64,000 bases of DNA from Pseudomonadota bacterium. Its GTDB lineage: Bacteria > Pseudomonadota > Alphaproteobacteria > Paracaedibacterales > CAIOTO01. Positions 402 to 40,078 of the stretch are shown here, in pieces. How positions within the stretch are numbered: the stretch's first letter is position 1; each line of letters opens with the position of its first letter. The stretch is taken from assembly GCA_040387495.1 (NCBI GenBank), contig JAZKDQ010000006.1, positions 49,391 to 113,390 on the forward strand, in the 5' to 3' direction. Below the pieces are notes generated by a model, which had not been told where the DNA came from, did not search any database, and saw only the letters and a list, made by a program, of their open reading frames with translations. The position numbers were made by a program, and so were the translations under genes.

Positions 402-1199
402 ATGTCCCTCATCGCCCTCACGCATCGCACTATTATCGAACTTACAGGCGAGGACACCATTGCCTTTTTGCAAGGTCAAACCACAAATGACATGACCAAA
501 TTGGTGCACGGCGCATGCCTTTATACTGTGTTTTTGAATTCCCAAGGGAAATTCATGAATGATGCCTTTGCGATCATGCCAACAGCTGATCATGTGTGGC
601 TTGACATTGAAGCTGAACATGCCATCACTTTACTTAAAAAACTGAATATGTATAAATTGCGGTCAAAGGTAACGCTTGCACTACGCGTTGATATTGCTGT
701 GTATGCATCCTTTGATGCGCCAACTGTTGATGGAAGTGATGCTTTAATCATGCAAGATCCACGCACTGCAGAAATGGGATATCGTGTTTATACCACAACG
801 AAACAGCAATCATGCACAGACCTCACAGCTTATGACAAACAGCGCATCCCTTTGTGTATTCCTGATGGTGCGCGAGATGTGCCGTATGAACGTGGATTTA
901 TTATGGAATATGGTTTTGACCGGTTAAATGCGATTGATTTCCAAAAAGGGTGCTATGTCGGACAAGAGTTAACAGCGCGTATGCATTATCGAAAACTCGG
1001 CAAACGACAACTGGTTTGCGTGAAATTTGAAATGGATACACCCGAAAGCGGAACTGATCTCACACACGATGGGCTTAGTGTTGGCACGCTTCGTTCCACA
1101 TGCAGGCAGCTTGCACTTGCACATATAAAAACAGAAGCACTCGACATAACCAACACGTTCATGGCAGATGGCCATGTGATGAAAATTTATACACCATAG
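402..1199 (+). CDS. ygfZ: YgfZ/GcvT-like folate-binding protein (Fe-S cluster repair / tRNA modification associated)
   Basis: 265-aa ORF. The C-terminal KGCYVGQELTARMHYR motif is the YgfZ family signature. Confidence 0.8.
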   Translation: MSLIALTHRTIIELTGEDTIAFLQGQTTNDMTKLVHGACLYTVFLNSQGKFMNDAFAIMPTADHVWLDIEAEHAITLLKKLNMYKLRSKVTLALRVDIAVYASFDAPTVDGSDALIMQDPRTAEMGYRVYTTTKQQSCTDLTAYDKQRIPLCIPDGARDVPYERGFIMEYGFDRLNAIDFQKGCYVGQELTARMHYRKLGKRQLVCVKFEMDTPESGTDLTHDGLSVGTLRSTCRQLALAHIKTEALDITNTFMADGHVMKIYTP

Positions 1200-1596
1200 A
1201 ATTGAGTTACCCGTCAAATCATTTCACAAACTACTTCAGCCCGGCACAGCATAATGATGGGAATTTTATGTATTTAATTCCTCTGGATGGTCAATTTTTT
1301 TCATAAAAAGAGATGAGCTAAAAAGCTTGTCTAACAGGCATGTCGCACCCATTCACATAAGACAGCAAGGTCAAATTATCAAAAGCTGAGCATTATAGCT
1401 GCCTATATAATTTTCAAACGAGCCTTCGATAGAGAATTCATAAAAATAGAATAAAATACATGAATAAACAAAATCAATTTGTAAATGAGAAAATATATAT
1501 TATTTTTCAAACAACAACACTTGATTTTATTAGAGACCATCCCCATATTGTAGAATGTGGAATGAGAATGCATCACTAATAAGGAGAAAGCTCTAC

Positions 1597-3552: not shown

Positions 3553-3710
3553 TTACATGCTATTTATTCAAAAAAAAAAGAGTAGACAATCCGAATTGCA
3601 AATGGTATAAGCATACAGTATTCTTTTGATTCCTTTATAAGAAAAACTTAAAATACCTAAACCGTGCGCGATAAAAAAATATTTGCTAGAAATATAAAAA
3701 ACAGAAAGCC

Positions 3711-4217
3711 GTGAGAATGAATTTAAACTACGCCTTCTTTACTGCCACAATCGCTATGATTTTATCAGTGAATACTGCTACCAGTAATTTAATCCAGCAT
3801 GAAAATTATACAAAGTCAGATTTCAGAGACAGTGCAACTTATGTGTTTCTTGAAAGATTCAAAGCAGATGACTCTTTGCCTACGGTAGTTCCTGCAATTA
3901 AGGCTGCTAGCGTTGTGCATTCTGGTGATGCTGATCTTAACACAGCTCCACGTAAGTACACAAAAGCTGACTTCAGAAAAGCTGCAGATTATACATTTGT
4001 CGAAAATTTCAAAGCAGATGATTCTTTGCATCATGTAGAAAAAAGTGTTCCACAAGAACCAAAAAGGACCTGGCCCAGCTATATTGAAACAAAAGCGTCA
4101 GAAGGCTTGACTTACATATATAATTCCACAAAGAACGCATTTGGATCAGCTATGAGTTGGGGATCAAAATTATCTGCAAATCTATCTAGATACATTTCTG
4201 CCACATCATGGTTCTAA
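3711..4217 (+). CDS. Hypothetical secreted protein with an internal duplicated module of about 30 aa
   Basis: 168-aa ORF (GTG 3711 or ATG 3717) with a hydrophobic N-terminus. It contains two copies of Y-T-K-[SA]-D-F-R-x-[SA]-A-x-Y-x-F-[LV]-E-x-F-K-A-D-D-S-L. A good terminator follows. Confidence 0.55.
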   Translation: MRMNLNYAFFTATIAMILSVNTATSNLIQHENYTKSDFRDSATYVFLERFKADDSLPTVVPAIKAASVVHSGDADLNTAPRKYTKADFRKAADYTFVENFKADDSLHHVEKSVPQEPKRTWPSYIETKASEGLTYIYNSTKNAFGSAMSWGSKLSANLSRYISATSWF

Positions 4218-4240
4218 CGTATTAATTTACCATCCTACAT

Positions 4241-4276
4241 GCCGGCTTGAATTTCAACATTTAAGCCGGTTTTTTT
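4241..4276 (+). terminator. Rho-independent terminator between convergent genes
   Basis: GCCGGCTT - 14-nt loop - AAGCCGGT stem-loop followed by a T-run, 24 nt after the stop at 4217. Confidence 0.65.
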
Positions 4277-4311
4277 ATCCTTATGCATTAGTTCATGAAT
4301 ACGTCCTTCTT

Positions 4312-6606
4312 TTACCCCTTCAAATACGATAGCAAACTCAATTCGTGGCTTCCAATCGTTACCCCTAAGGTTCCAGTTGTTTCTTCATGCAAGAATTGTT
4401 TATACACCATAAAGTTTTCTAACACGCGCTGTACGTAATTTCGTGTTTCCGCATATGGAATGCATTCGATCCAGTGCACAATATCAACATCTGGTAGCCG
4501 AGGGTCTCCATAATCCCTGATCCATTCGCTCACAGGCTTTGGTCCTGCGTTATAGGCTGCAAGACTAAGAACTAAACTACCATTATAGTTGTCGAGCAGA
4601 CTCTCAATATGTGACGTTCCAAGTGTAATGTTTTGATTTTTTTCATACAAATTCATTTTTGAAGAAAGATTGATTCCAAACCGTTTAATTGCACGTGCTT
4701 CTTCCTTAGCTGTTGCTGGAGTTAATTGCATCATCCCGCGCGCATTAGCTGAACTAAGTGCATATTCATCAAATCCACTTTCACGACGAATAATAGCATG
4801 TGAAAGCGGCATCAAAAGGCTTCCAAATCGACTTTTAGGTACGATGCGACTCACAGTAGATTTTCTTGTTTCTGCACGCAGCAGCGGATAAGCTACTCTA
4901 AATGTCATATGCTTTTTCTTAGCAAGTAATATTGCATAGGCTTCGCCTTTTTTCTCTTTTGCCAAATCAAATACTTGTCGCTGAAATGCAAGCGTTTGAC
5001 TGATTTTAAGCAACGCAAAAAAGAAAGAATCGCAATTGTGACCTTTTCTTGCCTCTGAAACAGACCTGATAACCTGCACGAGTTCTAAATTCTCGAAAGC
5101 CGCTTTTTCTGCTGGAGGCACAGTTACTTCCAACACCGCCTTAAAGGACACATTTTTAATTATTGGGTGTTGATCTTTTAGCTTAGCATTGGCAATTTGG
5201 CTCGCAGCCATTTGACCATAAAATGTTGTCGAATAGGTACTTGCTTCAAGAAACGCTTTTTTTGCTTCACTTAGTTGATTAAGTTTCAAATAAGATTCCC
5301 CAATCCAATAATGCACCCGAGATTTACTAATTGCTTCCTTTACAACGGTTTCAATACCTTTAAAAACACCTAAAGCCTTTTCTGGCTTATTCGCATAATT
5401 AAGGGCAAGCCACCCTGTCATGCAATGTGCATGTGCGCATTCTTCACCGCACCGTATTTCTCCAAAATGTTTTTCTTTATTAATCTTAAAACCATGCTTC
5501 TTAACTAACGTATATGCATCTATTGGACGCTTTGCATCCATCATTCGGCGCGCAAGCAGATTCCTTTCTTTCCAGAAAACGCTCGCATGTTGCTCTTCAT
5601 CTAGAAATGTATTGTTAATAAAAAGCTGAACCGCAGCTTCTGTTCCCTCAGGTGTTTTGAGCTGCCGATAATATCGGATTAATTCAAAAATAACGCCTTC
5701 ATTATTACCAGCTTTACTAATAAGTTTTTGCGCTCGCGCAGCCGCATCTGATTTTTTAGCCAACAAATCAAGGCGCAATGAAATACGTTCTTTTTCATCC
5801 GGAGTTAAATACCCAAGCAAAGCCGTTGCATCTCTACTATGCTTTGTATAAAGTAAATTGCTTGCATGTAAATATGCCCATAAAAAAGGTAAGTATTGTT
5901 TATAATTGACAAGCTGAACAATAATATCGGTTGGTATTGGAAAAGAAACGAGCAACTTATAGAACTCTTGCTTTGCTTGATCAATTTTCCCTTTTACAAG
6001 CAATGCCTTCGCGTAATAAAACTGCCCCTTTCCAGTTTTTGGGTGATAGCGATCAAAAAATTCAATCACTTGACCTGCAGCCACAGGATCCGCACCTGGG
6101 TCTTCCAATACATTCTCAGCTTTTTCACATAGCACTGATTGTTTTGGCCAGGTAGGATGCTGCTCAATGAATGTGACTATTTCAATAAATGTAGCCGTCC
6201 CTAACAATAAATGTCTCCATTGATCAAAAAAAGCTTTTGCATCAATTCGCACATTTGCTATTGGTGTTGCTATTGCTGACTGAGCTGTAGGCACAGGCAC
6301 TGCTGTTGGTGCCGACGCGACTGGTATTAACGGCGTTATTGCGGGCACAACTACTGACGATGCTTTATTTGAATTTTCTGGTGCAACCAGTGCTAGTGTA
6401 CTCGAAAGTATGGCGGGCACATTTATTTGTGTTATAGTGGGCGTCATAAATGTTGGTGCACTTTGCTTGATGGCGGCAGGGGCCACAACTTGCGCTCCTT
6501 GTGCAGCTGGCATTACTGACGTCATAATATCAGCTTTAGCCATTACACAAAACCAACACATAATAAAGAGATAACAAAAAAACAAACGAAGCAACACATC
6601 TTTCAA
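4312..6606 (-). CDS. slt: Soluble lytic murein transglycosylase (Slt70-like) with an Ala/Pro/Val-rich N-terminal extension
   Basis: 764-aa ORF. The C-terminal SLT domain carries the motifs ESGFD...GMMQLTPATA...AYNAGP. A long superhelical middle region is typical of Slt70. Confidence 0.85.
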   Translation of the reverse strand: MKDVLLRLFFCYLFIMCWFCVMAKADIMTSVMPAAQGAQVVAPAAIKQSAPTFMTPTITQINVPAILSSTLALVAPENSNKASSVVVPAITPLIPVASAPTAVPVPTAQSAIATPIANVRIDAKAFFDQWRHLLLGTATFIEIVTFIEQHPTWPKQSVLCEKAENVLEDPGADPVAAGQVIEFFDRYHPKTGKGQFYYAKALLVKGKIDQAKQEFYKLLVSFPIPTDIIVQLVNYKQYLPFLWAYLHASNLLYTKHSRDATALLGYLTPDEKERISLRLDLLAKKSDAAARAQKLISKAGNNEGVIFELIRYYRQLKTPEGTEAAVQLFINNTFLDEEQHASVFWKERNLLARRMMDAKRPIDAYTLVKKHGFKINKEKHFGEIRCGEECAHAHCMTGWLALNYANKPEKALGVFKGIETVVKEAISKSRVHYWIGESYLKLNQLSEAKKAFLEASTYSTTFYGQMAASQIANAKLKDQHPIIKNVSFKAVLEVTVPPAEKAAFENLELVQVIRSVSEARKGHNCDSFFFALLKISQTLAFQRQVFDLAKEKKGEAYAILLAKKKHMTFRVAYPLLRAETRKSTVSRIVPKSRFGSLLMPLSHAIIRRESGFDEYALSSANARGMMQLTPATAKEEARAIKRFGINLSSKMNLYEKNQNITLGTSHIESLLDNYNGSLVLSLAAYNAGPKPVSEWIRDYGDPRLPDVDIVHWIECIPYAETRNYVQRVLENFMVYKQFLHEETTGTLGVTIGSHELSLLSYLKG

Positions 6607-6620
6607 GGAGCATTTCCCTT

Positions 6621-7505
6621 ATGCTAAAAGGTTCAATTGTAGCACTTATAACGCCATTTCGTTCTAATCAAATAGATGTCGTGGCCTTAAAACGCCTTTT
6701 AGAATGGCACCTATCTCAAGGCACCGATGGTATTGTTGTATGCGGCACAACAGGAGAAGCAGCCATGCTCACCCCAGAAGAACGTACCCTTATAATAAGC
6801 ATAGCTGTATCTGTACTAAAAGGTAAAGTACCTGTTATTGTTGGCTGCGGCACTTCGTCAACGGCTCAAACATTGACATTTATGCAAGAAGCCGAAACAT
6901 TAGGTGCCGATACCACACTTGTTGTAGCTCCTTATTATGTAAAGCCATCGCAACATGGAATTATCGAACACTTTAAAACTTTACATGAACATACACGGCT
7001 TCCCATTATCGTATACAATAACCCTGGGCGTGTTGGGGTAAATATCGAAATTGAAACAACAGTAAGGCTTTGTGAAATGCCGCGCATACTTGGTTTTAAA
7101 GACTCTCATTCTGACCCAACGCGTATTGCGGCATTAAGACTCGCTGTCGGAAATAAAATGTCTTTGCTTTCAGGTGAAGATAGCATTGCTTCCGCGCACA
7201 TGTTGTATGGTGCAGATGGTGCTATTTCCGTCTTAGGAAACGTTGTGCCTAACTTGTACAAACGCCTTATGAATGCATGGAAAACACACGATATTCAGGC
7301 ATTTACAAAGCTAACATTTGAATTGCATCCATTATGCACAGCTATTTCTGCCGAGACAAATCCATGCACAATTAAGTATGCTGTTTCTAAAATAGGTTAT
7401 TGCACAGCGGATGTACGCTTACCACTAACGCCTATTCGTCCTGAAACAGAAAAACGCATTGATGCAGCACTTACAACATTGAATAAAATGCCGAAAACGG
7501 CCTAG
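6621..7505 (+). CDS. dapA: 4-hydroxy-tetrahydrodipicolinate synthase
   Basis: 294 aa. It has the motifs GTDGIVVCGTTGE, YNNPGR and APYYVKP characteristic of DapA. Confidence 0.9.
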   Translation: MLKGSIVALITPFRSNQIDVVALKRLLEWHLSQGTDGIVVCGTTGEAAMLTPEERTLIISIAVSVLKGKVPVIVGCGTSSTAQTLTFMQEAETLGADTTLVVAPYYVKPSQHGIIEHFKTLHEHTRLPIIVYNNPGRVGVNIEIETTVRLCEMPRILGFKDSHSDPTRIAALRLAVGNKMSLLSGEDSIASAHMLYGADGAISVLGNVVPNLYKRLMNAWKTHDIQAFTKLTFELHPLCTAISAETNPCTIKYAVSKIGYCTADVRLPLTPIRPETEKRIDAALTTLNKMPKTA

Positions 7506-7520
7506 ATTAAGAGAACCAAT

Positions 7521-8012
7521 ATGAGTAAAGACAAAGACACAGACAATTACAAAGTTGTCGCACAAAACAAACGTGCACGCTTTGACTATGATCTAATCGA
7601 AATTATCGAGGCTGGGATCATGCTGAAAGGCAGTGAAGTTAAGTCTTTACGACTTGGCAAGAGCAGCATTAACGAAGCCTATATTGGCGAAATGACAGAA
7701 GAAGGTGCGGATCATTGTGGCCTTTATTTGATCAATGCAACCATATCCGAATATGCACAAGCAAATAGTTTTGGTCACGCCGAAAAACGTCCGCGATGTC
7801 TGCTTGTACGAAAACGGCAAATGAATAAGTTTTTAGGTTCCATCCGAAAAAAAGGAATGACTGTTGTTCCATTGCGCCTTTATTTCAATGGAAAAGGCAT
7901 TGCAAAGTTAGAAATTGCGTTGGCAAAAGGACGCCAAACACATGACAAACGCGCCGCCATTAAAGACCGTGATTGGGGCCGTGAAAAAGCACGTGTACTA
8001 AAGGGAGAATAA
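7521..8012 (+). CDS. smpB: SsrA-binding protein
   Basis: 163 aa. It has NKRARFDY...GSEVKSLR...AYI and a basic C-terminal tail, as in canonical SmpB. Confidence 0.9.
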   Translation: MSKDKDTDNYKVVAQNKRARFDYDLIEIIEAGIMLKGSEVKSLRLGKSSINEAYIGEMTEEGADHCGLYLINATISEYAQANSFGHAEKRPRCLLVRKRQMNKFLGSIRKKGMTVVPLRLYFNGKGIAKLEIALAKGRQTHDKRAAIKDRDWGREKARVLKGE

Positions 8013-8017
8013 GAAAC

Positions 8018-8879
8018 GCCCATTCAACATTGAAACACACCACTAGGAAACTCCTGGTTAATGACTTAAGAATCTCTCTGCTGGTGTTTCAAAATTTAAA
8101 CTAAAATGTGGTCTATTATTGAGTCCTTTCTCAACTTCTATAACCTGATCTTGCGTTAGCATAGTGAAGTTTGTTCCTTTTGGAAACTATTGCCGAACAA
8201 GACCATTTGTATGTTCATTCAAGCCACGTTCCCATGCATGATATGGTTTAGCAAAATAGAACAGTGCATTTAACGATTTGCTCACCTGCTCATGATCTGA
8301 AAACTCTTTCCCATTATCCGCTGTTAACGTATGAATCATTGCATGAATATGCTTTAAACGTCGAATGATGACTTCGCTAGCCGCGTGTGCCGTTGCTCTT
8401 GGAACAAGTTCAAGTCCAGCATGTTTGTCTTTTCAAAGCAAACGATAGATGCTTTTATGGCTGATCTTAATGCCGCTCTTTTAAGAGTCTGCCTGAAATT
8501 TGCACAGGACTTGATTGAGAATGGGTTAAGTGCCATTTGATTTTTTCAATGACTCCTGGCGTCAGTTTTCGTTTAACGCCACTGGCCTTGCTTTTCCTGT
8601 TTAATGTCTCTGCGTGGGCGTGTTGATAACGATAACCTCGTTTACCCTGGTTACGATTAATTTCTCATATGATGGTGGATGGCAGACCTGTAATTGCTTT
8701 GCTATGAAACGTTTTGACTTTCTACTTTTCAAAAGTCCATAAATCTGCATCTTTCATCTTGGATCAAATGCGTGCCGATTGCTCGATTCATGACAATCTC
8801 CTTTTTGCGATAGAGATCAGCTTAAATACACTTGACTTTTTTGTTATCCCCTAGTGGTGCGTTTCAATGTTGAATGGGC
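8018..8879 (-). mobile_element. Degenerate IS30-family insertion sequence (internally deleted, frameshifted), termini intact
   Basis: 30-bp terminal inverted repeats GCCCATTCAACATTGAAAC[A/G]CACCACTAGG lie at 8018-8047 and 8850-8879 (1 mismatch). GAAAC is present on both outer flanks (8013-8017, 8880-8884). The interior encodes IS30-type transposase pieces. Confidence 0.8.
8058..8791 (-). pseudogene. IS30-family transposase pseudogene
   Basis: Reverse-strand translation across several frames gives ...ISREINRNQGKRGYRYQHA...KLTPGVIEKIKWHL...SPVQISGRL... and ...TADNGKEFSDHEQVSKSLNALFYFAKPYHAWERGLNEHTNGLVRQ*FPKGTNF...NNRP.... It has multiple frameshifts and stops. The segment that should carry the first catalytic D is missing. 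Confidence 0.75.
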
Positions 8880-22638: not shown

Positions 22639-25233
22639 ATGACATCTGATATTCGTGCTCAAACTCTGGTCAATTCTGACCTAACTCCGACTGCTGAGAC
22701 AGCTACACTTGTGGCTATCCCAACAACGCACACCCCTATGATGCAGCAATATTGGGAAATCAAACAACGCCACCCAAACGAATTGCTCTTTTACCGCATG
22801 GGCGATTTTTATGAAATGTTTCATGACGACGCAGTGATTGCGGCGCGCGATTTGGATATTGCATTAACTAAACGTGGAAAAACCGATGGCGAAGATATCC
22901 ACATGTGCGGGGTACCATTTCATGCATATGAAAATTACTTAGCGCGGTTGATTCAAAAGGGGCACCGTGTAGCTATTTGTGAGCAGTTGGAATCGCCCGA
23001 GGACGCTAAAAAACGCGGTGCAAAAGGTCCGTTGAACCGAGATGTTGTGCGTATTGTAACGCCTGGAACGCTCACCGAGGAAACACTGCTGCCAGCGCGT
23101 CAGAACAATTACTTGGTAGCTGTGTCACCGCTTGTAAAAGGGAAGCTTGGCATTTCGATCATTGATATTTCCACTGGGGAATTCATGCTTGAACCGTGCG
23201 CGGCCGTTGATCTTGCAACCACATTGGCGCGCCTTGATCCGTCTGAAATCCTCATCCCTGACACGCATCTGAATCCAGGTGAATTGTTTGATACATTGCT
23301 GCCGTGGCGCCGTAAATGCACGCCAATGCCCTTAGTGCGTTTTAGTCATGCCAACTGCGTGGAACGGTTGATGACATTCTTTTCCACGAAGACCTTGGAC
23401 GTTTTTGGGCAAATTCCCGATGAATGTTTAATGGCGGCAGGTGTCGCATTGGATTATCTGTATCTAACACAAAAAGAAGCATTGCCGCGCCTAGCATATC
23501 CCCGCTTTGTACAAAAATCGGAATCGCTTATTATTGATGCAGCGACACGCAAAAGTCTGGAACTGACTTATACGCAAAACGGGCACTTTCAAGGCTCACT
23601 ATTGCACAGCATTGACAGGACGTTGACTTCGATGGGTGCGCGATTGCTAATGCGACGTCTGTCATCCCCGTTGATTGATCCTGTTTCTATCCATCAACGC
23701 CAGGATAAAGTGACGTATTTTTATGATCAGGCGCCCATAAGGCGGGATGTGCGTGCGCTACTGGCAAAATGCCCTGATGCGGAACGTGCACTCGGGCGGT
23801 TATTGATGAATCGTGGCGGTCCGCGTGATGTTGGCTTGGTGCGACAAGCGTTGAGTCAGGCTGAGCAGCTAAGCCATTTTCTGGATGAAACGCCTGCTTT
23901 CTCTGAACAGTGGAAAGATGCACTTACCTGCAACCCAGATACGCTCACGTTGCTAACGAATGCTTTTCATGACGAACAATTGCCACTGCTTGCGCGTGAT
24001 GGCGGGTTCATTGCGGATGGTTATTCGCCTGACCTTGATCGCGTGCGGCATGTGCGTGCAAATGGAAAATCGATGATTGAAGCGCTGCAGCAGCGTTATG
24101 TCATGGAAACATCGATCACCACGCTTAAAATTCGTCACAACCATGTGCTGGGCTACCATATCGAGGTAAGCCCCAGTCATAATAGTAAGGTGCCAGATTA
24201 TTTTATTCACAGGCAAACGTTATCAACCAGTTATCGATACACAACCATTGAACTTGCTAAACTTGAGCAGGACTTGAGCCAGGCAGAGGCAACAGCGCTG
24301 TCCATTGAGCTGTCTTTGTATGAAAGCTTGATCGAAGAAATTGCACTGGCTGAAGCGTCGCTTAAAAAGACATTACGCGCGTTGGGTGATATCGATGTGG
24401 CAGCGGCTGCAGCGGAACTTGCGGTTGTTGAACGATATACGGCACCTATTATTGATGATTCGCCTATGATTCATATTGAAAATGGTCGCCACCCTGTGGT
24501 GGAGCAAGTCTTAAGGCAATCTTCTGCAACGATGCCTTTTACAGCAAATGATTGTAAGGTGACTGAACTAAAACGCTTTTGGCTCATGACAGGGCCAAAT
24601 ATGGGTGGAAAAAGTACGTATCTTCGTCAGAATGCCTTGATTATTATCATGGCACAAATGGGCATGTATGTGCCGGCGGAGTCTGCACGCATCGGTTGGG
24701 TTGATCGAATTTTTAGCCGCGTTGGCGCATCGGATGATTTAGCTGCTGGACGATCAACGTTTATGGTAGAGATGGTCGAAACAGCAGCTATTTTACATCA
24801 AGCAACAGATCGATCTTTTGTGATTTTAGATGAAATCGGCCGTGGAACGGCGACGTATGATGGCCTTGCCATTGCGTGGGCTGTGTCTGAACATCTGCAC
24901 AATGAAATTAAATGTCGTGCAATTTTTGCGACACATTATCATGAACTGACAAAACTGCAAGATACATTGCCAATGATGGCGTGCTTAACCGTTAAAGTCG
25001 AAGAATGGCAAAATCAAATTGTCTTTTTGCATAAAGTAATTGAAGGAGTGGCGGACAGATCATATGGTGTGCACGTGGCTGCACTTGCGGGCTTGCCAAA
25101 AACGGTCGTGAAACGTGCGGAGATAGTGCTGCGTGGGTTAGAGAAAGCAAAGAAAGATAAACAGGCTAAAACACTATCCGATAAAACTGAAGAAGCTCAG
25201 GAACAAAGAAAGCAATTGAAATTAGTGTTTTAG
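22639..25233 (+). CDS. mutS: DNA mismatch repair protein MutS
   Basis: 864 aa. [12 protein letters not shown]..., [11 protein letters not shown], Walker [10 protein letters not shown] and [12 protein letters not shown]. Confidence 0.95.
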
Positions 25234-25328
25234 TGCTTTTATCCATTGTCACATTTTGTCACACACAATTGCTGTCGTTTAGGTTATCTTAAGTCTGAAA
25301 TTCATTAATCAATAAAAGAGAAAAATAT

Positions 25329-27179
25329 ATGTGTGGCATTATTGGAATTATCAGTCAAACCGACGTTAGTGAACGCTTGCTTGATGGTCTTAAGCGGCTT
25401 GAGTATCGCGGGTATGATTCGGCTGGGATTGCAACATTGGCAGCTGATGGTGAGATTGATCGTCGCCGCGCTGAAGGTAAACTTGAAAAACTTGCTGACG
25501 TCTTATGTGAACGCCCACTTGCTGGAACTATTGGTATTGGCCATACACGTTGGGCAACGCACGGTGGTATCACGAAAAATAACGCTCACCCTATGGCGAA
25601 TGATAGTGTTGCAGTTGTACATAATGGCATTATTGAAAACTTTGCTCCGCTTAAAGAAATGTTGCTGAAACGTGGGGCAATCTTTACCAGTGATACGGAT
25701 ACTGAGGTCGTCATGCACTTGGTCTCTATGTATATGCAAGATGGTTTGGCTCCGCTTGAGGCCGTTCAAAGAACTCTATCACAAATTAAAGGTGCATTTG
25801 CACTTGCGTTCCTGTTTAAAGCGCACTCACATATGTTGATCGCTGCCCGCCGAGGCAGCCCACTTGTACTAGGCGTTACTGAGTCAGAGCTATTCATTGG
25901 ATCAGATGCCATTGCACTTGCGCCGTGGGTGCGCACGCTGTGTTATCTTGAAGAAGGCGATGTTGCAACCTTAACATTGCACCGTGATAAAGCTAAAGTT
26001 TCAATTCTGAACGAGGAAGGCATACCAGTAGAGCGCCCGCTTCGACAAACAAACATAACAACAGATGCAATCAGTAAAGGTGCTTTCACGCACTATATGC
26101 TGAAAGAGATTTTTGAGCAGCCGTTGACGGTGAGCGATACGTTGCAGTCACTTATTTCTGTTGAAGACGAATCATTTCACGCACCCCTGCTTGCGCTTGA
26201 TAAACCCTTTTCTAAGATTCGTATTATTGCATGTGGCACATCATATTATGCGGGGCTTGTGGCAAAGTATTGGTTTGAAAAACTGGCACGTATTCACGTA
26301 GATGTAGAAATTGCGTCTGAGTTTCGGTACCGCTCACCTGTGTTTGATGGTAATACATTGAACTTCTTCATCACACAATCAGGTGAAACCATTGATACGC
26401 TAGCCGCCTTAACGCTGGTTAAGCAGCACAGTGAAACATGCGTTGCAATTATGAACGTAGCGGAAAGCTCCATTGCACGTGCGTCGGATCATGTAATTCA
26501 AACAATGGCGGGCCCTGAAATTGGTGTGGCGAGTACAAAAGCATTTACAGCGCAACTCGTCGTTCTGGCTTCATTGTGTTTGAAATTTGCAAAAGAAAAC
26601 AAAACAATATCTGATAGTGAATGGACGCAGTTTTTCCAGTCTATTGCACAAATTCCAGGGCATATCAGTGATATGTTACGTAATGACGGGGTATATCACC
26701 AACTGGCAGCACATTTGTGTCAGATGCACCATGCTTTGTATTTGGGTCGCGGTGCTAACTTTCCAATCGCACTCGAGGGCGCATTAAAACTTAAAGAGAT
26801 TTCATACATTCACGCTGAAGGCTATCCTGCAGGCGAGCTTAAACACGGTCCCATTGCCTTGATTGATTCTAAAATGCCCGTGATTGTCGTGGCACCACAT
26901 GATGAATGGTTTGAAAAGACGCTGTCGAATGTACAAGAAGTATTAGCGCGTTGCGCGCAGGTGATTGTGTTCACAGATGAAAAAGGTGCAGCAGCAATTG
27001 AGGCACAAACAAAAACAATGCCGTGCTATCGCATTATAACATTGCCGGAATCGAATATGCTGACGGCACCGCTTTTGTATACGGTTCCAATCCAGTTGCT
27101 TGCGTATTATACCGCGCATATGAAAGGCACAGATGTGGATCAGCCACGGAATTTGGCGAAGTCTGTGACGGTGGAGTAA
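25329..27179 (+). CDS. glmS: Glutamine--fructose-6-phosphate aminotransferase
   Basis: 616 aa. N-terminal MCGIIG, two SIS domains, C-terminal ...DVDQPRNLAKSVTVE. Confidence 0.95.
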   Translation: MCGIIGIISQTDVSERLLDGLKRLEYRGYDSAGIATLAADGEIDRRRAEGKLEKLADVLCERPLAGTIGIGHTRWATHGGITKNNAHPMANDSVAVVHNGIIENFAPLKEMLLKRGAIFTSDTDTEVVMHLVSMYMQDGLAPLEAVQRTLSQIKGAFALAFLFKAHSHMLIAARRGSPLVLGVTESELFIGSDAIALAPWVRTLCYLEEGDVATLTLHRDKAKVSILNEEGIPVERPLRQTNITTDAISKGAFTHYMLKEIFEQPLTVSDTLQSLISVEDESFHAPLLALDKPFSKIRIIACGTSYYAGLVAKYWFEKLARIHVDVEIASEFRYRSPVFDGNTLNFFITQSGETIDTLAALTLVKQHSETCVAIMNVAESSIARASDHVIQTMAGPEIGVASTKAFTAQLVVLASLCLKFAKENKTISDSEWTQFFQSIAQIPGHISDMLRNDGVYHQLAAHLCQMHHALYLGRGANFPIALEGALKLKEISYIHAEGYPAGELKHGPIALIDSKMPVIVVAPHDEWFEKTLSNVQEVLARCAQVIVFTDEKGAAAIEAQTKTMPCYRIITLPESNMLTAPLLYTVPIQLLAYYTAHMKGTDVDQPRNLAKSVTVE

Positions 27180-30091: not shown

Positions 30092-31117
30092 TTACCAGCG
30101 AATAATAGCAGAAGCCCATGTTAGCCCGCCACCCATAGCTTCTATCAGCACAAGCTGTCCTGGCTTAATACGCCCGTCAGTGACAGCCTCGTACAAAGCA
30201 AGTGGAATAGACGCGGCCGATGTATTCGCGTGTTTATCGACAGTTATAACTACCTTTTCAGGAGGCAAGTGAAAATGGTCAATGACGCCTGCTATGATGC
30301 GTTCATTCGCTTGATGCGGAACAAACCAATCAATATCATCAACTGTTAGCTTATTCGCGGCGAGCGCTTTTTCAACGGCTTCACCAATTTTCTTAACGGC
30401 ACTTTTGAATATTTCACGCCCATTCATAACGACAGCGCCACGCATATTTGGTGTATCAATGGTATGGTCAACATAAAGCAAATCATATCCACATCCATCA
30501 GAATAAAGATGAGTTGACAATACGCCACGTTTATCAGCATTACGTGATTTGGTACTATTCGTATTTGCACTTTGAATATGTGATGATATCTCTTTATCAA
30601 GTTCCGTTGCTTTTAATACAAGCGCTGCAGCACCATCACCAAAAAGCACACATGTACCGCGATCGTTCCAGTCAACAATGCGTGACATAGATTCAGCGCC
30701 AATTAAAAGAACTGTTTTTGCTTGACCTACTTTGATAAAATTATCAGCAACACTTAAAGCATATACAAATCCAGAACAAACAGCCTGCACATCAAAAGCA
30801 AAAGCATTTGATGCCCCAATCAGAGCCTGCACACGTGTAGCCGTTGCGGGGAATCCATTATCAGGTGTCGTAGTCGCAAGAATAATCGCATCTACTTCCG
30901 TGGCACGAATACCTGCTTTGAAAAGTGCTTGTTTAGCCGCATTTGCGGCCATGTATGCTGTTGTTTCTTCACTATTGGCTGTATGACGCTGTGTTATGCC
31001 AGTACGTTCACGAATCCATTCATCAGATGTATTAAGATGCTTCGGTAAATCAGTGTTTTTAACACAATTTTTAGGTAGATAATGCCCAATACCGGCAACA
31101 CATGAACGAAAAGTCAT
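30092..31117 (-). CDS. fabH: Beta-ketoacyl-ACP synthase III
   Basis: 341 aa. Active-site region AFDVQAVCSGFVYAL, PHQAN, GNTSAAS, and C-terminal EAMGGGLTWASAIIRW. It carries an extra loop of about 22 aa compared with E. coli FabH. Confidence 0.9.
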   Translation of the reverse strand: MTFRSCVAGIGHYLPKNCVKNTDLPKHLNTSDEWIRERTGITQRHTANSEETTAYMAANAAKQALFKAGIRATEVDAIILATTTPDNGFPATATRVQALIGASNAFAFDVQAVCSGFVYALSVADNFIKVGQAKTVLLIGAESMSRIVDWNDRGTCVLFGDGAAALVLKATELDKEISSHIQSANTNSTKSRNADKRGVLSTHLYSDGCGYDLLYVDHTIDTPNMRGAVVMNGREIFKSAVKKIGEAVEKALAANKLTVDDIDWFVPHQANERIIAGVIDHFHLPPEKVVITVDKHANTSAASIPLALYEAVTDGRIKPGQLVLIEAMGGGLTWASAIIRW

Positions 31118-34793: not shown

Positions 34794-35036
34794 AACTGCT
34801 CCTTAAAAAATCAATGACTGTAGTGTTCAATGGCATAAATGCTCCTTGATCGACCGTCATGATTAGAATAAATCGACAATAGTTAAAATCGAGTAAAGGC
34901 AGAAAAAAATAATGTGAGAATGTGCATTTTTTTGTTGAATCAGATCCTTGTGTTCTACTAAATATATTTGAACCTATTCTTAATCCAGAAAAATCTTGAT
35001 TTATCACTTAAGTTACCTTATGTTCAAAAGTGCAAT

Positions 35037-35112
35037 GTCCCCTTCGTCTAGTGGCCTAGGATACCACCCTCTCACGGTGTAGACACGGGTTCGACTCCCG
35101 TAGGGGACGCCA
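35037..35112 (+). tRNA. tRNA-Glu (anticodon CUC)
   Basis: GTCCCCT acceptor stem pairs with AGGGGAC. The anticodon stem CCACC/GGTGT has loop CT-CTC-AC. T-arm is ACGGG-TTCGACT-CCCGT. A 3-prime GCCA is encoded. Confidence 0.9.
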
Positions 35113-35182
35113 AATTTCAGTCTTATGATGTCCAGTATTGTTTTAAAATTCCTATAAATACGATTACGAAAAACATATAACA

Positions 35183-35935
35183 ATGCTCACAGACCCTCCC
35201 CGTCCCTTTTGGCAACATGTGGCAGAACTGCGCACTGCAGTTATTATTTCGCTGACATTCTTTCTGATTGGCACAGGCGTTGCTTATTTTTTATCTGAAC
35301 CCATTTTTCATATTCTTGTGTCACCGCTGGAACAACTCTTCGCAATCAAAGGCGAGGCACGTCGATTCATATACACCAACCTTACCGAAGCATTTGTCAC
35401 TTATCTTAAAGTTGCTCTCTTTGCTGGGCTATTTTTCACATTTCCTTTTATCGCACTACAAGCATGGTTATTCATTAGTCCAGGATTATTCAAACGCGAG
35501 CGAGGACTTTTTTTCGTTCTGTTATTTTCAATTCCATTCTTTTTCACTGTTGGCGCTCTTTTTGCCTACTATATTGTTTTACCTGCTGCATTTTCGTTCT
35601 TTTTAAGTTTTGAAACAATGATCGGCAGCATACCATTGCAGTTAGAAACCAGAATGAGCGAATATTTATCGCTCGTCATGCGAATGCTGTTGGCATTTGG
35701 GCTTAGTTTTGAGCTGCCTGTTATTTTAGGCGGTCTCGCTTGGCTCGGCATACTCTCGAAAGAGACATTAATCAAACCTTGGCGTTTAGCCGTTGTAGGT
35801 GTGACATTTCTTGCCGCCATTATTACGCCACCTGATGCGCTCAGCATGATTTTGCTCGCACTGCCGTTGCTATTTTTATATGCTTTATCTATTATTGTCG
35901 TTAGCTTTATAGAAAAACATAAAAACCATGCATGA
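35183..35935 (+). CDS. tatC: Sec-independent protein translocase TatC, copy 1
   Basis: 250 aa, 6 [15 protein letters not shown]..., ...PGLFKRERG... and ...ITPPDALSM... typical of TatC. It is identical to copy 2 except for residue 2. Confidence 0.85.
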   Translation: MLTDPPRPFWQHVAELRTAVIISLTFFLIGTGVAYFLSEPIFHILVSPLEQLFAIKGEARRFIYTNLTEAFVTYLKVALFAGLFFTFPFIALQAWLFISPGLFKRERGLFFVLLFSIPFFFTVGALFAYYIVLPAAFSFFLSFETMIGSIPLQLETRMSEYLSLVMRMLLAFGLSFELPVILGGLAWLGILSKETLIKPWRLAVVGVTFLAAIITPPDALSMILLALPLLFLYALSIIVVSFIEKHKNHA

Positions 35936-35989
35936 CATTAAATTTATTCGCAGCACCCCTGATCAATTCAACGCCGGCCTTGCGCGTCG
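35928..35989 (+). pseudogene. Truncated 5-prime fragment of serS (first 20 codons)
   Basis: [20 protein letters not shown] matches the start of the full serS at 38810. Similarity ends at 35989 and the sequence continues into IS982-type sequence. Confidence 0.8.
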
Positions 35990-36017
35990 CAAAAAGTTGA
36001 ACATTACTTTGTCTTAA

Positions 36018-36455
36018 GGCCATCCTTTTATCACACAACATGGCCCTGTTGTAGGAGATGAAGTGGCGGTTGCCAATATTGATGAACGTGGTATTCTGCC
36101 AAAGATTCTTAGCAATCGAAGTGGCATGTTGCTTGGTGATAAAGGACTCATTCATCCTACATTGGAAGCAATGCTTGCACAGCAGAATTTAAATCTACAA
36201 ACACCTTTGCGTCGGAACATGCCTGATTCGAGGCCTAAAAAACTCGTTTCTACAATGATGAATATGCGCCGCATTGTTGAGACAATGATTGGACAACTCG
36301 TCGATCTCTTTCATATACGGTCAATTAAAGCTAAAGATATATGACATTTATCCGCAAAAGTGGGACGAAAAATATTGGCTTACACTGTTTATTTTATGTT
36401 TAACTCAATCGTAAATCCTGAAACACCCCTGGCATTCAAGTTGCGACTTGATTAA
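36018..36455 (+). pseudogene. IS982-family transposase, C-terminal fragment with an internal stop
   Basis: Translation ...VAVANIDERGILPKILSNRSGMLLGDKGLIHPTLEAMLAQQNLNLQTPLRRNMPD...RRIVETMIGQLVDLFHIRSIKAKDI*HLSAKVGRKILAYTV... follows the IS982 pattern (ANV.D...L.GDKGY.S...L.TP.R.NM...R..IET...QL). The N-terminal half is absent. Confidence 0.7.
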
Positions 36456-36643
36456 AAAAAACTTGATTGCCGCGTTATATCTTACCACAATCCATTCAGT
36501 GCATCGATAAGTTCACAACAACCAAGCATCTAAAGCTTTATCTAAAAAGAAAATTCCGCTAGATTACTGTCTAAGAAGGAAAAAGTGAAATCTTTTTATT
36601 TTACTTTCTAGAATCTTCATCAATATTTTCAAAAGGCTTTCCC

Positions 36644-37951
36644 ATGCGCTTAACCTCTATAAAAATTCTGCCGCTGCTATTTACAATTTTTTGTAATGAC
36701 ATTTGCAATGCATCAACACAAGAAATTTCAAAAGATCTTGCGGTTTTGGCAAAACAATTTACAGGACGTTTTTTAAAGAATGGTTATTCACAATCTGACA
36801 TTTACGATGCATTGATTTACCTCAGGAAGCAAACTGAAATGAACATTTATGTTTACACATTTAAAAACAAAACATGGACAATGATTCCTTTTAGTCCTCA
36901 AAAAGACTGTTCAACAAACTATCCACAATCTCGATTATTACTTTCATGGCTGAATGAAAACGCAACAAAAAAGATAAAAGAAGGTTTTACCTTCTGTAGC
37001 GTCCCTCAAGAACCAATCCATGACAATAGTTGGCTGGGAGAAGAACGCCAAATAAAAATAAGGCATTTATTTGATACATGTCCAGTTTTAGCAACATGCA
37101 CTCATCCTGAGATTTTATGGACAGAAAATGCCGTACTTATTCCAGATTATTTTATTTTAAATGAAAACTATTATTCAAATTGTAATGAAATAATAAAAGA
37201 AAACAATACTTCTTTTGTGAATAGAAAACCAGTCATTTTCTTTCGCGGAGCAATAACAGGTGCCTATTCTCAGATACAATATGACATGGAAAGTATAAAA
37301 AAAGATGATCGTTTAGTGTTATTTGGCATGTCAAAAGAAAAAGAATTTATTGATGCAAAAATAACTGCTGACTATTGGCTGGATAACGAAGGAAAGGCAA
37401 CCGTAGATTTTCTAAACTGGTACAAACACAATTTAACCAGCAGAAAAAGTGCTCCCGTAGATTTTATAGCGCATGCCCAAAATAAGTATCTTATATCGAT
37501 TGATGGATTCGGAGCAGCATGGTCACGTGTCCCCTATATTTTATTTACAGGATCTGTCTTATTATTACGCGCAGATTGCAAACAATATTTTTATAAATTA
37601 CTCACGCCGAAGAAAACGCATGTTGAGATAAATCGCTATTTAACAAACATTGAAGAAGTTTACACATATCTTGAACAAAATCCTAAAGTTGCAGAATCTA
37701 TTGCCAATAACGGCAAAGCTTTTGCTGAAAAATACTTGATAAAAGACGCGATTGATACATATCTAACACATGTTATTTATGATTTAAATGAGGCATACTA
37801 TGAGCCCACGGGATGGATGAACAAAACTATTCTTGCATTCAAAAAAATAAGATTTCAAATCGCAGAAATCAAATATGCATCAAAAAGATATTTCAGAAAA
37901 CATTTAAAACCGTATTTTATGAGATTAAAATCAATAACCCATAATATTTAA
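36644..37951 (+). CDS. Glycosyltransferase family 90 (CAP10 / protein O-glucosyltransferase-like) with N-terminal signal sequence
   Basis: 435 aa. RKPVIFFRGAITG..., KYLISIDGFGAAWSRVPYILFTGSVLLL..., YFYKLLTPKKTHVEINRYLTNIEEVYTYLEQNPKVAESIANNGKAFAEKYL aligns by eye with the C-terminal catalytic region of POGLUT1/KDELC/CAP10 proteins. The gene is AT-rich. Confidence 0.75.
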   Translation: MRLTSIKILPLLFTIFCNDICNASTQEISKDLAVLAKQFTGRFLKNGYSQSDIYDALIYLRKQTEMNIYVYTFKNKTWTMIPFSPQKDCSTNYPQSRLLLSWLNENATKKIKEGFTFCSVPQEPIHDNSWLGEERQIKIRHLFDTCPVLATCTHPEILWTENAVLIPDYFILNENYYSNCNEIIKENNTSFVNRKPVIFFRGAITGAYSQIQYDMESIKKDDRLVLFGMSKEKEFIDAKITADYWLDNEGKATVDFLNWYKHNLTSRKSAPVDFIAHAQNKYLISIDGFGAAWSRVPYILFTGSVLLLRADCKQYFYKLLTPKKTHVEINRYLTNIEEVYTYLEQNPKVAESIANNGKAFAEKYLIKDAIDTYLTHVIYDLNEAYYEPTGWMNKTILAFKKIRFQIAEIKYASKRYFRKHLKPYFMRLKSITHNI

Positions 37952-38064
37952 GCTTCGTTGAAAAAGCATGCACCACATATGAAGTCAGAAACTATAATTC
38001 TAATGAAACCAGATTAAATTGATGCTCCAATCAATATAAAAAGAGAAAAATTGCATATATTATC

Positions 38065-38817
38065 ATGATCACAGACCCTCCCCGTCCGTTTTGGCAACAT
38101 GTGGCAGAACTGCGCACTGCAGTTATTATTTCGCTGACATTCTTTCTGATTGGCACAGGCGTTGCTTATTTTTTATCTGAACCCATTTTTCATATTCTTG
38201 TGTCACCGCTGGAACAACTCTTCGCAATCAAAGGCGAGGCACGTCGATTCATATACACCAACCTTACCGAAGCATTTGTCACTTATCTTAAAGTTGCTCT
38301 CTTTGCTGGGCTATTTTTCACATTTCCTTTTATCGCACTACAAGCATGGTTATTCATTAGTCCAGGATTATTCAAACGCGAGCGAGGACTTTTTTTCGTT
38401 CTGTTATTTTCAATTCCATTCTTTTTCACTGTTGGCGCTCTTTTTGCCTACTATATTGTTTTACCTGCTGCATTTTCGTTCTTTTTAAGTTTTGAAACAA
38501 TGATCGGCAGCATACCATTGCAGTTAGAAACCAGAATGAGCGAATATTTATCGCTCGTCATGCGAATGCTGTTGGCATTTGGGCTTAGTTTTGAGCTGCC
38601 TGTTATTTTAGGCGGTCTCGCTTGGCTCGGCATACTCTCGAAAGAGACATTAATCAAACCTTGGCGTTTAGCCGTTGTAGGTGTGACATTTCTTGCCGCC
38701 ATTATTACGCCACCTGATGCGCTCAGCATGATTTTGCTCGCACTGCCGTTGCTATTTTTATATGCTTTATCTATTATTGTCGTTAGCTTTATAGAAAAAC
38801 ATAAAAACCATGCATGA
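38065..38817 (+). CDS. tatC: Sec-independent protein translocase TatC, copy 2 (contiguous with full-length serS)
   Basis: 250 aa, same motifs as copy 1. Its stop overlaps the serS start (ATGCATGA). Confidence 0.9.
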
Positions 38818-38871
38818 CATTAAATTTATTCGCAGCACCCCTGATCAATTCGACGCCGGCCTTGCGCGCCG
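38065..38871 (+). repeat. Direct repeat 2 (807 bp) of the tatC-serS-prime duplication
   Basis: See 35183-35989. Confidence 0.9.
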
Positions 38872-40078
38872 TGGCCTCAATGCACAAGCGGAAGAAATTC
38901 TAGATCTTGATACAAAGCTTCGTCAGATTCAAACGGATTTACAAGATTTCCAAACACGTCGCAACGCAATTGCCAAAGAATTTGGTGCAATAAAAAAAAC
39001 AGGCGGAGACACATCATTTCTTACTGCTGAAAATGATAAAATAAAAGAAAAGATGACCATCCTCGAAGTAGAAATGCTTGCATTTGAAAATGAATTGCAC
39101 TCCGTTCTATCATATATCCCCAACTTACCTGCAGCGGATTGTCCTGATGGAAAAACCGAAGCAGAAAACGTAGAAATTCGCCGTCATGGCACCCCACGTG
39201 AATTTGATTTTACACCAAAGCAGCATTTTGAGATTGGTGAGAACCTAAAAATGATGGATTTTGAACGTGCCGCTAAAATGTCAGGTTCACGCTTTGTTGT
39301 GCTCACCGGGCAGCTTGCCCGATTAGAGCGTGCCATTGCTCAATTCATGCTTGATACGCACACAGGCACTTTTGGTTACACCGAGGCTTATGTACCATTA
39401 CTTGTGCATGACGCAGCTCCTTATGGTGTTGCGCATTTGCCAAAATTTGCCGACGATATGTTTAAAACCACGACTGGGCACTGGTTAACATCAACATCTG
39501 AAGTAACACTAACTAACTTGGTAGCGGGTGATATTTTAACAGAAGCAGAGCTACCACTACGTTTTACAGCCTATAGCCAATGCTTTAGATCAGAAGCAGG
39601 ATCGGCCGGCAAAGACACCCGTGGCATGATTCGTCAGCATCAGTTTTCAAAAGTTGAACTTGTTAGTATTACATTGCCTGAACAATCCCTTGCTGAACAT
39701 GAACGCATGACAGAGGCCGCTGAAACAATTCTGAAAAAGCTTGAATTACCATTTAGAACACTAGTACTTTGTACTGGCGATATGGGCTTTGCGTCTGAAA
39801 AAACATACGATTTAGAAGTGTGGCTGCCAGGGCAAAACGCTTATCGTGAAATTTCAAGCTGCTCACGCTGCAATGACTTTCAAGCACGCCGTATGAATAC
39901 ACGATATAAATCTAAAGCAGACGGCAAAAATTACTTTGTGCATACCTTAAATGGTTCTGGGTTGGCTGTTGGCCGCACAATGGTTGCGATTTTAGAAAAT
40001 TATCAGCAAGCTGATGGCTCAGTAATGATACCAGATGTGTTGCTACCTTATATGGGCGGCGTCACGATTATTAGGTGA
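38810..40078 (+). CDS. serS: Seryl-tRNA synthetase
   Basis: 422 aa. N-terminal coiled-coil arm and class II motifs (...[21 protein letters not shown]..., ...GSGLAVGRT...). Confidence 0.95.

Follow-up and report, generated by a model that had tools for sequence, protein, structure and literature searches.

When circular DNA integrates by a single crossover (Campbell-type, 'ends-in'), the product is a merodiploid with direct repeats, as in suicide-plasmid integrants. Concerted evolution by gene conversion is known from tufA/tufB in Salmonella and from rRNA operons. Homology-facilitated illegitimate recombination, known from transformation of Acinetobacter and Streptococcus, combines one homologous anchor with one illegitimate joint. 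The window analysed here (the whole stretch of 64,000 nucleotides) belongs to a metagenome-assembled genome of an uncultured, Paracaedibacteraceae-like alphaproteobacterium and contains a duplicated tatC-serS segment that brackets additional DNA. The features of this locus are listed with coordinates and strand.

35037-35112, plus strand: tRNA-Glu, anticodon CUC (ARAGORN, Rfam RF00005)
35183-35989, plus strand: direct repeat copy 1, 807 bp, with tatC1 (35183-35935) and serS nucleotides 1-62 (35928-35989)
35989-35990, no strand: junction J1, serS nucleotide 62 fused to an internal position of an IS982-family element
35990-36455, plus strand: IS982-family transposase remnant, C-terminal half only, protein homology 36018-36452, PF13612
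35990-38871, plus strand: variable unit, 2,882 bp, with the IS relic, GT90b and one repeat (equally phaseable as 35183-38064)
36456-36643, no strand: non-coding spacer that separates the IS relic from GT90b, no ORF, limit on the IS side approximate
36644-37951, plus strand: GT90b, predicted family-90 glycosyltransferase of 435 aa (PF05686, E=4.7e-16)
37952-38064, no strand: junction J2, the 113-bp GT90b-tatC2 intergenic region; identical spacer and GT90b 3' end in contig L047
38065-38871, plus strand: direct repeat copy 2, 807 bp, with tatC2 (38065-38817) overlapping the start of full-length serS (38810-40078)

As in Campbell integrants, two direct copies of homology bracket extra DNA, the empty site corresponds to one copy and the arrangement is reversible by homologous recombination; a circle-type junction (GT90b-tatC-IS) is found in contig L047. 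Unlike such integrants, the locus has no vector, origin or known donor, and its cargo is the normal upstream neighbour of tatC in the family. The near-identical repeat interiors, the divergence at the ends and the shared lineage-specific substitutions are comparable to tufA/tufB and the rRNA operons. The locus also resembles products of homology-facilitated illegitimate recombination, with tatC-serS as the homologous side and serS +62 joined to the IS interior as the illegitimate joint. In this species the variable glycosyltransferase locus no longer has its conserved left flank, which leaves homology on one side only. That process, however, usually replaces or deletes recipient DNA, whereas here 807 bp are duplicated. 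Copy number may vary via unequal crossover as in segmental amplification units, but the locus amounts to no more than 1.28 units, and assembly may have inflated the core identity. Since the unit holds DNA that is absent from single-copy strains, it is not a simple duplication relative to them. The 2.9-kb unit is an ordinary repeat-flanked structural variant and not a new kind of element or mechanism. A literature search by run and assembly accessions gave no match.

In an ungapped comparison, the 807 bases of copy 1 align to copy 2 without gaps at an offset of 2882, and a repeat search of the window recovers the same pair. There are only four mismatches (copy 1/copy 2): 35186/38068 (C/A), 35206/38088 (C/G), 35970/38852 (A/G) and 35987/38869 (T/C). 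The repeat core (35207-35969, 763 bp) has zero differences, and beyond the repeat limits the identity at offset 2882 is at the random level. The initial annotation had described the same gap-free repeat, the four mismatches, their closeness to the edges and the identical core, all of which are confirmed; each mismatch is at most 24 nt away from an edge. Under a uniform distribution of mismatches, all four would fall this close to an edge with P=1.1e-5, and the gene conversion proposed in that annotation from this clustering is judged reasonable. Position 35987 is just 3 nt from the junction and may therefore fall outside the true repeat boundary.

Both tatC copies share seven core differences from the single-copy assemblies L036-L039, including the private substitution R199P. 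Residue 199 is Arg in 10 of 10 comparable sequences of the TatC cluster at ≥90% identity and also in L001, L002, L003, L004 and L043. The divergence at the edges (4 in 44 nt) is far above the strain divergence of 1.1%; the second copy thus either predates the strain split or has a diverged source. Gene conversion between the copies would keep the central 763 bp uniform, and the terminal ~25 nt on either side would be too near to heterology for conversion and would drift.

Each repeat copy carries an intact TatC ORF of 250 aa, with residue 2 (Leu in copy 1, Ile in copy 2) as the sole difference, as had been annotated. The scanned copy, tatC1, differs from tatC2 at this residue only and is a full-length match to the family, with PF00902 (E=4e-62, 210 bits) and TIGR00945 (185.7 bits, cut-off 132.7). 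Full-length serS is present at the downstream copy only, again as annotated. It starts at 38810; the upstream fragment runs on into a stop at 36015-36017. A TatA/TatB-like ORF had been noted as missing before either copy, and none is found across the whole 64 kb. The end of tRNA-Glu is 70 bp from repeat copy 1, and a tRNA is the single match of the Rfam scan. Repeat search and Rfam revealed no repeat or RNA family in the spacer 36456-36643. A promoter and terminator scan gave consensus-level matches at a frequency not above that of shuffled sequence.

Four assemblies (L036-L039) with 98.9% DNA identity to the window, and by this measure conspecific with the window genome, have one tatC copy, arranged as tRNA-Glu, tatC, serS. 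This is the uninterrupted arrangement that the initial annotation suggested looking for in relatives. The difference between the window and these assemblies is exactly the 2,882-bp unit. Positions 9993-10807 of L036, which hold the one tatC, can be aligned to either copy in the window; on both sides the flanks are collinear at 98.9%. The left flank of copy 1 is contiguous with the empty-site strains, the right flank of copy 2 with the empty-site strains and all relatives. The spacer between tRNA-Glu and tatC is identical in the window and in L036-L039; tRNA-Glu natively adjoins tatC on the left in this species, and its position is outside the variable unit. A recombination-tract scan showed a uniform SNP density of ~1% between the window and L036 around the locus. 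The unit is a presence/absence polymorphism at the strain level.

Both junctions are real, as they are carried together with the edge SNPs by a unitig from the window's own reads and by a contig of a 99.8%-identical strain. The Logan unitig L041 (run SRR26324620) equals window 35940-38118 at 100%. Its two ends are each exactly 30 nt beyond an edge SNP, where a graph with k=31 would break; another unitig of this run, L042, matches window 1-8126 at 100%. The GenBank contig L047 (assembly GCA_040384145.1) shares J1, J2 and the edge alleles with the window, and a further contig of that assembly, L049, has 99.8% identity to the window. The locus has the properties of a repeat-flanked indel: two direct repeats, an empty site of one repeat with collinear flanks, and independent support for both junctions. 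L047 additionally joins GT90b to tatC and tatC to the IS remnant, an outward-facing linkage not found in the window. A circle or a tandem array of at least two units would give this linkage, so the real structure could hold at least two units or a circle; L047 is 1.9 kb long, and its assembly is of low coverage, with contigs of 2-4 kb. Its core differs from the window core at 468, 596, 610 and 624. The single-copy strains and the outward linkage fit the earlier claim that the cassette is excisable by homologous recombination.

By its domain match (59.1 bits to PF05686, cut-off 24, residues 186-379), GT90b is a predicted member of glycosyltransferase family 90. Its N-terminus is hydrophobic and, as read by eye, resembles a signal peptide; this N-terminus is conserved in the homologues P0026 and P0027. 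The closest homologues, P0026 (72% identity) and P0027/L043-45 (60%), are located directly 5' of tatC in related Paracaedibacteraceae genomes. A GT90 gene is also upstream of tatC in all other relatives, with L050 left out of this comparison as its contig stops 146 nt upstream of tatC. The GC content of GT90b is 32% and that of tatC 41%; in L043, GT90b is likewise ~10 GC points lower than its tatC, and low GC is typical of this gene family where it is native. The GT90a orthologue of the window genome diverges to a comparable degree, with 67-78% identity where TatC has 93-94%, and the divergence of GT90b is compatible with vertical descent of a fast-evolving gene. The initial annotation had regarded the cassette as foreign, a view that is not maintained given this neighbourhood, composition and divergence. 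In the gene orders compared, GT90b-tatC2-serS-lnt is the family-typical arrangement and tRNA-Glu-tatC1 a derived junction found in this species only. With GT90 next to tatC as the rule in relatives, J2 is probably not a new joint but a natural neighbourhood. A metagenome scan with the single GT90b protein found no relatives, and an alignment-based metagenome scan for GT90b relatives found one 50%-identical GT90a locus only. In L043, three copies of the tatC 3' end bracket two cassette genes.

The explanation favoured here, with somewhat better than even confidence, is that the IS relic, GT90b and the second tatC form a unit which is added or removed by recombination between tatC copies, and that the core is homogenised by conversion. 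RecA-type homologous recombination between the tatC copies would interconvert the states. An intramolecular crossover would delete or excise the unit and leave the single-copy form, unequal sister exchange would generate extra units, and a circle could re-integrate by the reverse of excision. As tatC and serS overlap, DNA at serS +62 is tolerated only with an intact tatC-serS after it; the duplication would be what makes the arrangement viable. A caveat to the favoured explanation is that, if the assembly is based on short reads, a single core node may have been used twice by the assembler; the core identity would then be partly a matter of construction, and sparse internal differences would have been collapsed. 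The linkage of each repeat to its outer flank runs across the 763-bp core, which is probably longer than short-read spans.

For the direction of change, there is about an even chance that the two-copy form is the older one in this species and that the single-copy strains lost the unit. The two-copy form would then be a scar of the rearrangement that put tRNA-Glu next to tatC. Against this order of events, three of the four edge differences are located where Campbell integration from a diverged donor would leave donor alleles, at the left edge of copy 2 and the right edge of copy 1, and the long persistence of an 807-bp direct repeat needs selection for GT90b or low recombination. A single inversion or a single tandem duplication does not fit, because the orientation of tRNA-Glu is kept. 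A reconstruction of the path from the GT90-first to the tRNA-Glu layout with L040, L048, L002 and L042 met with too many independent rearrangements.

The opposite direction, a recent Campbell-type gain, is possible but rather unlikely. Here a circle of IS relic, GT90b, tatC and serS nucleotides 1-62, derived from a relative with the order GT90-tatC-serS (e.g. excised from a tandem duplication in the donor), would have entered tatC of a tRNA-Glu-tatC-serS recipient by a single crossover, and conversion would then have overwritten the donor core. Empty-site strains exist, and on its left side the repeat is limited by the start codon of tatC, exactly where the homology of the two layouts begins. 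G24 of copy 2 and A788 and T805 of copy 1 are at expected donor sites and are synonymous or seen in relatives. The circle-type linkage in L047 also fits, and the GT90-first relatives L043-45 and the empty-site assemblies L036-39 come from metagenomes of one sample series (GROS21-1). However, the donor search gave no match, the nearest GT90b being 72% identical, and the tatC genes of known relatives are 78-83% identical in DNA, whereas the edges imply a donor of ~93%. The core is at background divergence from L036 and both copies carry R199P, so that ~50 donor differences would have been erased. Furthermore, the remaining edge difference (35186) is private to the resident copy, and a gain takes more steps than a loss by deletion.

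An assembly construct is improbable. In this case there would be one chromosomal tatC, and the cassette with its tatC would be on a 2,882-bp circle, be part of a tandem array or belong to a co-occurring strain, and the assembler would have joined the two into a single contig via their common core. The source is a metagenome-assembled genome, the Logan unitigs from the window's run end exactly at the core, and the GT90b-core-IS linkage of L047 is as a circle would give. A graph node traversed twice also yields perfect core identity, as in the window. Against a construct, three independent assemblies show the edge SNPs in phase with their flanks, a 2.9-kb circle lacking a replication gene cannot persist alone, and the path in L047 may arise by chance from missing branches at low coverage. 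The tatC core is present on both sides of the cassette in every assembly that has the cassette; a direct-repeat or cyclic structure is thus unavoidable.

That the repeat is a by-product of transposition of a composite or one-ended IS982 transposon is very improbable. As in IS982-family elements and composite transposons, a fragment of the family's DDE transposase is located at one edge of the cassette. It covers positions 117-241 of 243 in NF033520 (91 bits, below the cut-off of 130) and has an in-frame stop at 36342-36344, in agreement with the annotation of a C-terminal half with an internal stop. The joint to serS, however, is inside the truncated transposase gene (~codon 117) and not at a terminal inverted repeat. 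No second IS982 copy is present in the window or in the 52 related loci compared, and the 807-bp duplication differs from the short target-site duplication of such elements. The best homologues of the remnant among 5.8 billion proteins are 61-73% identical; with none above 73%, no active source is in sight. The N-terminal IS half is absent from every locus compared. A split of the IS by rearrangement, with this half left beside GT90a, was also considered and rejected, as no such fragment adjoins GT90a in L042 or elsewhere. The IS982 piece is an old, truncated and inactive relic, a passenger rather than an agent, and the IS-mediated origin suggested by the initial annotation is not supported. 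Least probable of all, and barely credible, is a tRNA-Glu-targeted genomic island inserted by a site-specific recombinase: despite the closeness of tRNA-Glu to copy 1, which the initial annotation had mentioned, the cassette has no integrase ORF, the repeats are tatC-serS sequence and not a tRNA 3' end, and the tRNA-tatC junction is the same in strains without the unit, so that the empty-site comparison contradicts an island.

Read as a unit added or removed by recombination between tatC copies, the locus is a natural example of an essential overlapping gene pair, tatC/serS, which tolerates adjacent DNA only through duplication. The sampled strains span the expected states, namely empty site, one unit and a junction of the circle or array type. 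For the annotation of metagenome-assembled genomes caution is advisable, as 'two identical tatC' may partly reflect the repeat handling of the assembler. A more speculative and improbable idea is that the unit serves as a recombinational dosage or on/off module, present in zero, one or at least two tandem copies or as a transient circle, which would switch a secreted GT90 of an intracellular symbiont; in the broader form of this idea, the family may repeatedly use tatC-serS as a homology anchor to take up and lose cassettes of surface-glycan and secreted-protein genes. The region 5' of tatC is a variable glycosyltransferase locus in Paracaedibacteraceae-like bacteria and may bear on their interaction with the host.

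Self-comparison of the window recovers the 807-bp direct repeat described in the initial annotation. Positions 35183–35989 and 38065–38871 align without gaps at an offset of 2882 bp, and identity between the copies falls to random level beyond these limits. The copies differ solely at 35186, 35206, 35970 and 35987 (paired with 38068, 38088, 38852 and 38869), and the 763-bp core is identical, as had been read by eye. All four mismatches lie at most 24 nt from the edges (P = 1.1 × 10^-5, assuming uniform placement). As annotated, each copy encodes an intact TatC of 250 residues, with Leu at residue 2 in one and Ile in the other, and both include the first 62 nt of serS. Full-length SerS (422 residues) is encoded from the downstream copy only; the upstream fragment closes as a 29-codon ORF. 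The overlap of tatC and serS amounts to 8 nt. The 3' end of tRNA-Glu(CUC) is indeed located 70 bp ahead of copy 1. The main features and deposited proteins are:

35183–35989, copy 1 of the repeat: tatC1 (MES2607715) and the start of serS
36342–36344, in-frame stop codon in the IS982-family transposase relic
36644–37951, glycosyltransferase gene GT90b (MES2607717)
38065–38871, copy 2 of the repeat: tatC2 (MES2607718) and the start of full-length serS (MES2607719)

The contig encoding these proteins (194,796 bp) belongs to a metagenome-assembled genome, and assembly questions therefore have to be weighed seriously. The closest genomes are labeled Candidatus Paracaedibacteraceae or Alphaproteobacteria.

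The uninterrupted arrangement of tRNA-Glu, tatC and serS, for which a comparison with related genomes had been proposed, is present with a single tatC in four contigs from other metagenomes (L036–L039). They share 98.9% identity with the window on either side and show the gene order surE, nlpD, an RRM-protein gene (minus strand), tRNA-Glu, tatC, serS and lnt. Positions 9993–10807 of L036 align with both repeat copies. Together with the collinear flanks, this double alignment shows that the window differs from these strains by exactly one 2,882-bp unit, which comprises the IS relic, the GT90 gene and one copy of the repeat. The presence of this unit, bounded by the 807-bp direct repeats, varies between strains.

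At the four variable sites the single-copy strains carry A, C, G and C; the C at 35186 is therefore private to copy 1 of the window. The other deviating alleles are G at 38088, A at 35970 and T at 35987. Seven core differences from L036–L039, including R199P, are common to both window copies. Codon 199 of tatC (35777–35779 and 38659–38661) encodes Pro in both. Arg is found here in all ten comparable sequences of the ≥90% TatC cluster, including the 99.8%-identical strain L047, and also in the relatives L001, L002, L003, L004 and L043. R199P is a radical substitution, private to the window and common to both tatC genes. Across the 64-kb window no TatA/TatB-like ORF was found, in line with the annotated lack of tatA/tatB, and neither gene adjoins tatC in any of the examined relatives. 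Within this bacterial family, tatC and the other Tat components are uncoupled.

The GT90b gene between the repeats (435 residues, PF05686, 32% GC) had been regarded as foreign. This view does not hold, as its nearest homologues are located directly upstream of tatC in relatives. The contig of the closest one (P0026, 72% identity; JGI 3300059473) has the order GT90a (404 residues), GT90b (430 residues), tatC, serS, and the next closest (P0027, 60%; L043–L045) is also immediately 5' of tatC. The second class, GT90a (388–390 residues), directly precedes tatC in L002, L040, L048 and L051/L052 and lies one gene upstream in L001, with a 310-residue ORF in between. The L050 contig reaches only 146 nt upstream of tatC. 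GT90a orthologues are 67–78% identical where TatC is 93–94% identical; the 60–72% of GT90b is therefore consistent with a rapidly evolving gene of vertical descent. In L043, the GC content of GT90b is about 10 points below that of the adjoining tatC. GT90b-tatC2-serS-lnt is thus the layout typical of the family, and the junction of tRNA-Glu and tatC is confined to this species. The GT90a orthologue of the window genome, P0033, is located ~2–3 kb past the left window end on the opposite strand (L042 10001–11470, ~1.9–3.3 kb beyond). This paralogue of 388 residues is 49% identical to the cassette GT90 and adjoins the usual 3'-5' exonuclease gene, as in relatives; a tRNA-like sequence (by-eye reading) follows in place of tatC. 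The P0033 locus marks the other side of an old synteny break.

Homologous recombination between the tatC copies would interconvert the two states. Deletion or excision would yield the single-copy form, unequal exchange would produce arrays and integration of a circle would be the reverse reaction. Gene conversion would keep the repeat interior uniform, and the last ~25 nt beside the heterology may escape conversion and diverge. DNA at position +62 of serS would be viable only with a complete tatC-serS downstream. Because of the 8-nt overlap of the two genes, a surviving structure with such an insertion carries the duplication.

The divergence at the edges is far above the 1.1% between strains. 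Hence, either the second copy predates the strain split or its source was ~7% diverged. An older duplication with later loss of the unit is preferred and is given about an even chance. No donor with ~7% divergence is known among the relatives, whose tatC genes are all 78–83% identical in DNA. Furthermore, the IS is ancient, the position of the cassette gene is that typical of the family, and the loss would require just one easy step, recombination between the repeats. Gain of the unit by Campbell-type integration is rather unlikely, even though three of the four edge differences are found where donor alleles are expected and the left limit of the repeat is the point where the homology of the two layouts stops.

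The remaining probability falls to assembly-related alternatives. If a short-read assembler traversed a single core node twice, the cores would come out identical, with any sparse internal bubbles popped. The edges, with four differences in 44 nt, are however far above any plausible core divergence. Both joints, for which a check had been suggested, and the edge SNPs are found in two assemblies independent of the window contig. L041, a raw Logan unitig of run SRR26324620, corresponds to window positions 35940–38118 at 100% identity; L042, from the same run, matches positions 1–8126 at 100%. The ends of L041 lie 30 nt outside the edge SNPs, before that at 35970 and after that at 38088. Such ends would be the cut expected of a k=31 graph for a cassette between two copies with a shared core. 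L047 belongs to a different GenBank assembly, GCA_040384145.1; another contig of this assembly, L049, shares 99.8% identity with the window. L047 comprises the 3' 565 nt of the GT90 gene, a 113-bp spacer as in the window, tatC, the initial 62 nt of serS and the IS relic. Its cassette parts agree with the window at 100%, the edge alleles are equal and the core differs at four positions (468, 596, 610 and 624 from the tatC ATG). Thus, both junctions and the edge SNPs are present in the reads of at least two samples. The linkage of GT90, tatC and IS relic in L047 is a combination that does not occur in the window contig. It could correspond to a circle or an array of at least two units; equally, it could stem from a low-coverage assembly with lost outer branches. 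Positions 1–33 of L047 have no match in the window or any locus, and the match begins abruptly at 37500 inside GT90b. Either the contig end is chimeric or GT90b has been truncated in that strain by a further rearrangement. In L049, ~114 extra bases (779–892) are present at the plsX/fabH boundary (window ~31089–31091).

The proposed IS-mediated origin is not supported. Only the C-terminal half of the transposase is present (NCBIfam positions 117–241 of 243), it is interrupted by the stop codon, the serS joint lies inside its gene and no second IS982 fragment was found in the window or any fetched locus. Its best homologues among 5.8 billion proteins are 61–73% identical. The relic is an old passenger and did not drive the event. 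Likewise, tRNA-Glu is not a meaningful target: the spacer to tatC is unchanged in strains lacking the unit and there is no integrase, which excludes a tRNA-targeted island.

The region 5' of tatC is a variable locus in which glycan genes are often present. The gene next to tatC differs by lineage, which gives the region the look of a variable surface-glycan locus with tatC as its anchor, as listed for the upstream intervals:

L001, 2630–4814: 310-residue AT-rich ORF next to tatC
L002, 6817–7989: GT90a
L004 (more distant relative), 6874–7998: DegT-type sugar aminotransferase
L043, 10001–11293: GT90b

In a related species (L043 12046–15290, also L044 and L045), tatC and serS are ~3.2 kb apart. 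The insert has two ORFs (282 and 320 residues), each with a hydrophobic N-terminus. Three copies of the terminal 58 nt of tatC (81–86% identical) bracket it, as does a 384–397-nt direct repeat (93–97%) containing a MITE-like element. This topology matches that of the window, with a cassette between duplicated tatC sequences. Several of these genomes contain a short repeated element (L043 13332–13529 and 14894–15091, L001 160–372), whose translation resembles "...WIPA..R..GMT..." and suggests a family of miniature mobile elements. In three sister species a tRNA-Glu module is located downstream of lnt (tatC-serS-lnt-tRNA-Glu; L001 8723–8798, L040 13858–13990, L048 13794–13926), and its counterpart in the window (34969–35137) is upstream of tatC. 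The tRNA-Glu block is circularly permuted between these species, and no simple route from one gene order to the other was found. A PhdYeFM/PIN toxin-antitoxin pair between glmS and mutS in the sister species L040 (2677–3357) is absent from the corresponding interval of the window (25233–25329).

Well documented by strain comparison, the window structure is a merodiploid or segmental duplication with concerted evolution, which is a known kind at a new place. Neither IS mediation, a tRNA island nor alien cargo accounts for it. A far-reaching and improbable reading is that the unit would act as a copy-number switch, driven by recombination, for a secreted glycosyltransferase, and that tatC-serS would be used recurrently as a capture anchor; the triple tatC 3' end around two cassette genes in L043 would fit the latter. 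That tatC is present in two identical copies is a by-product and not a functional innovation.
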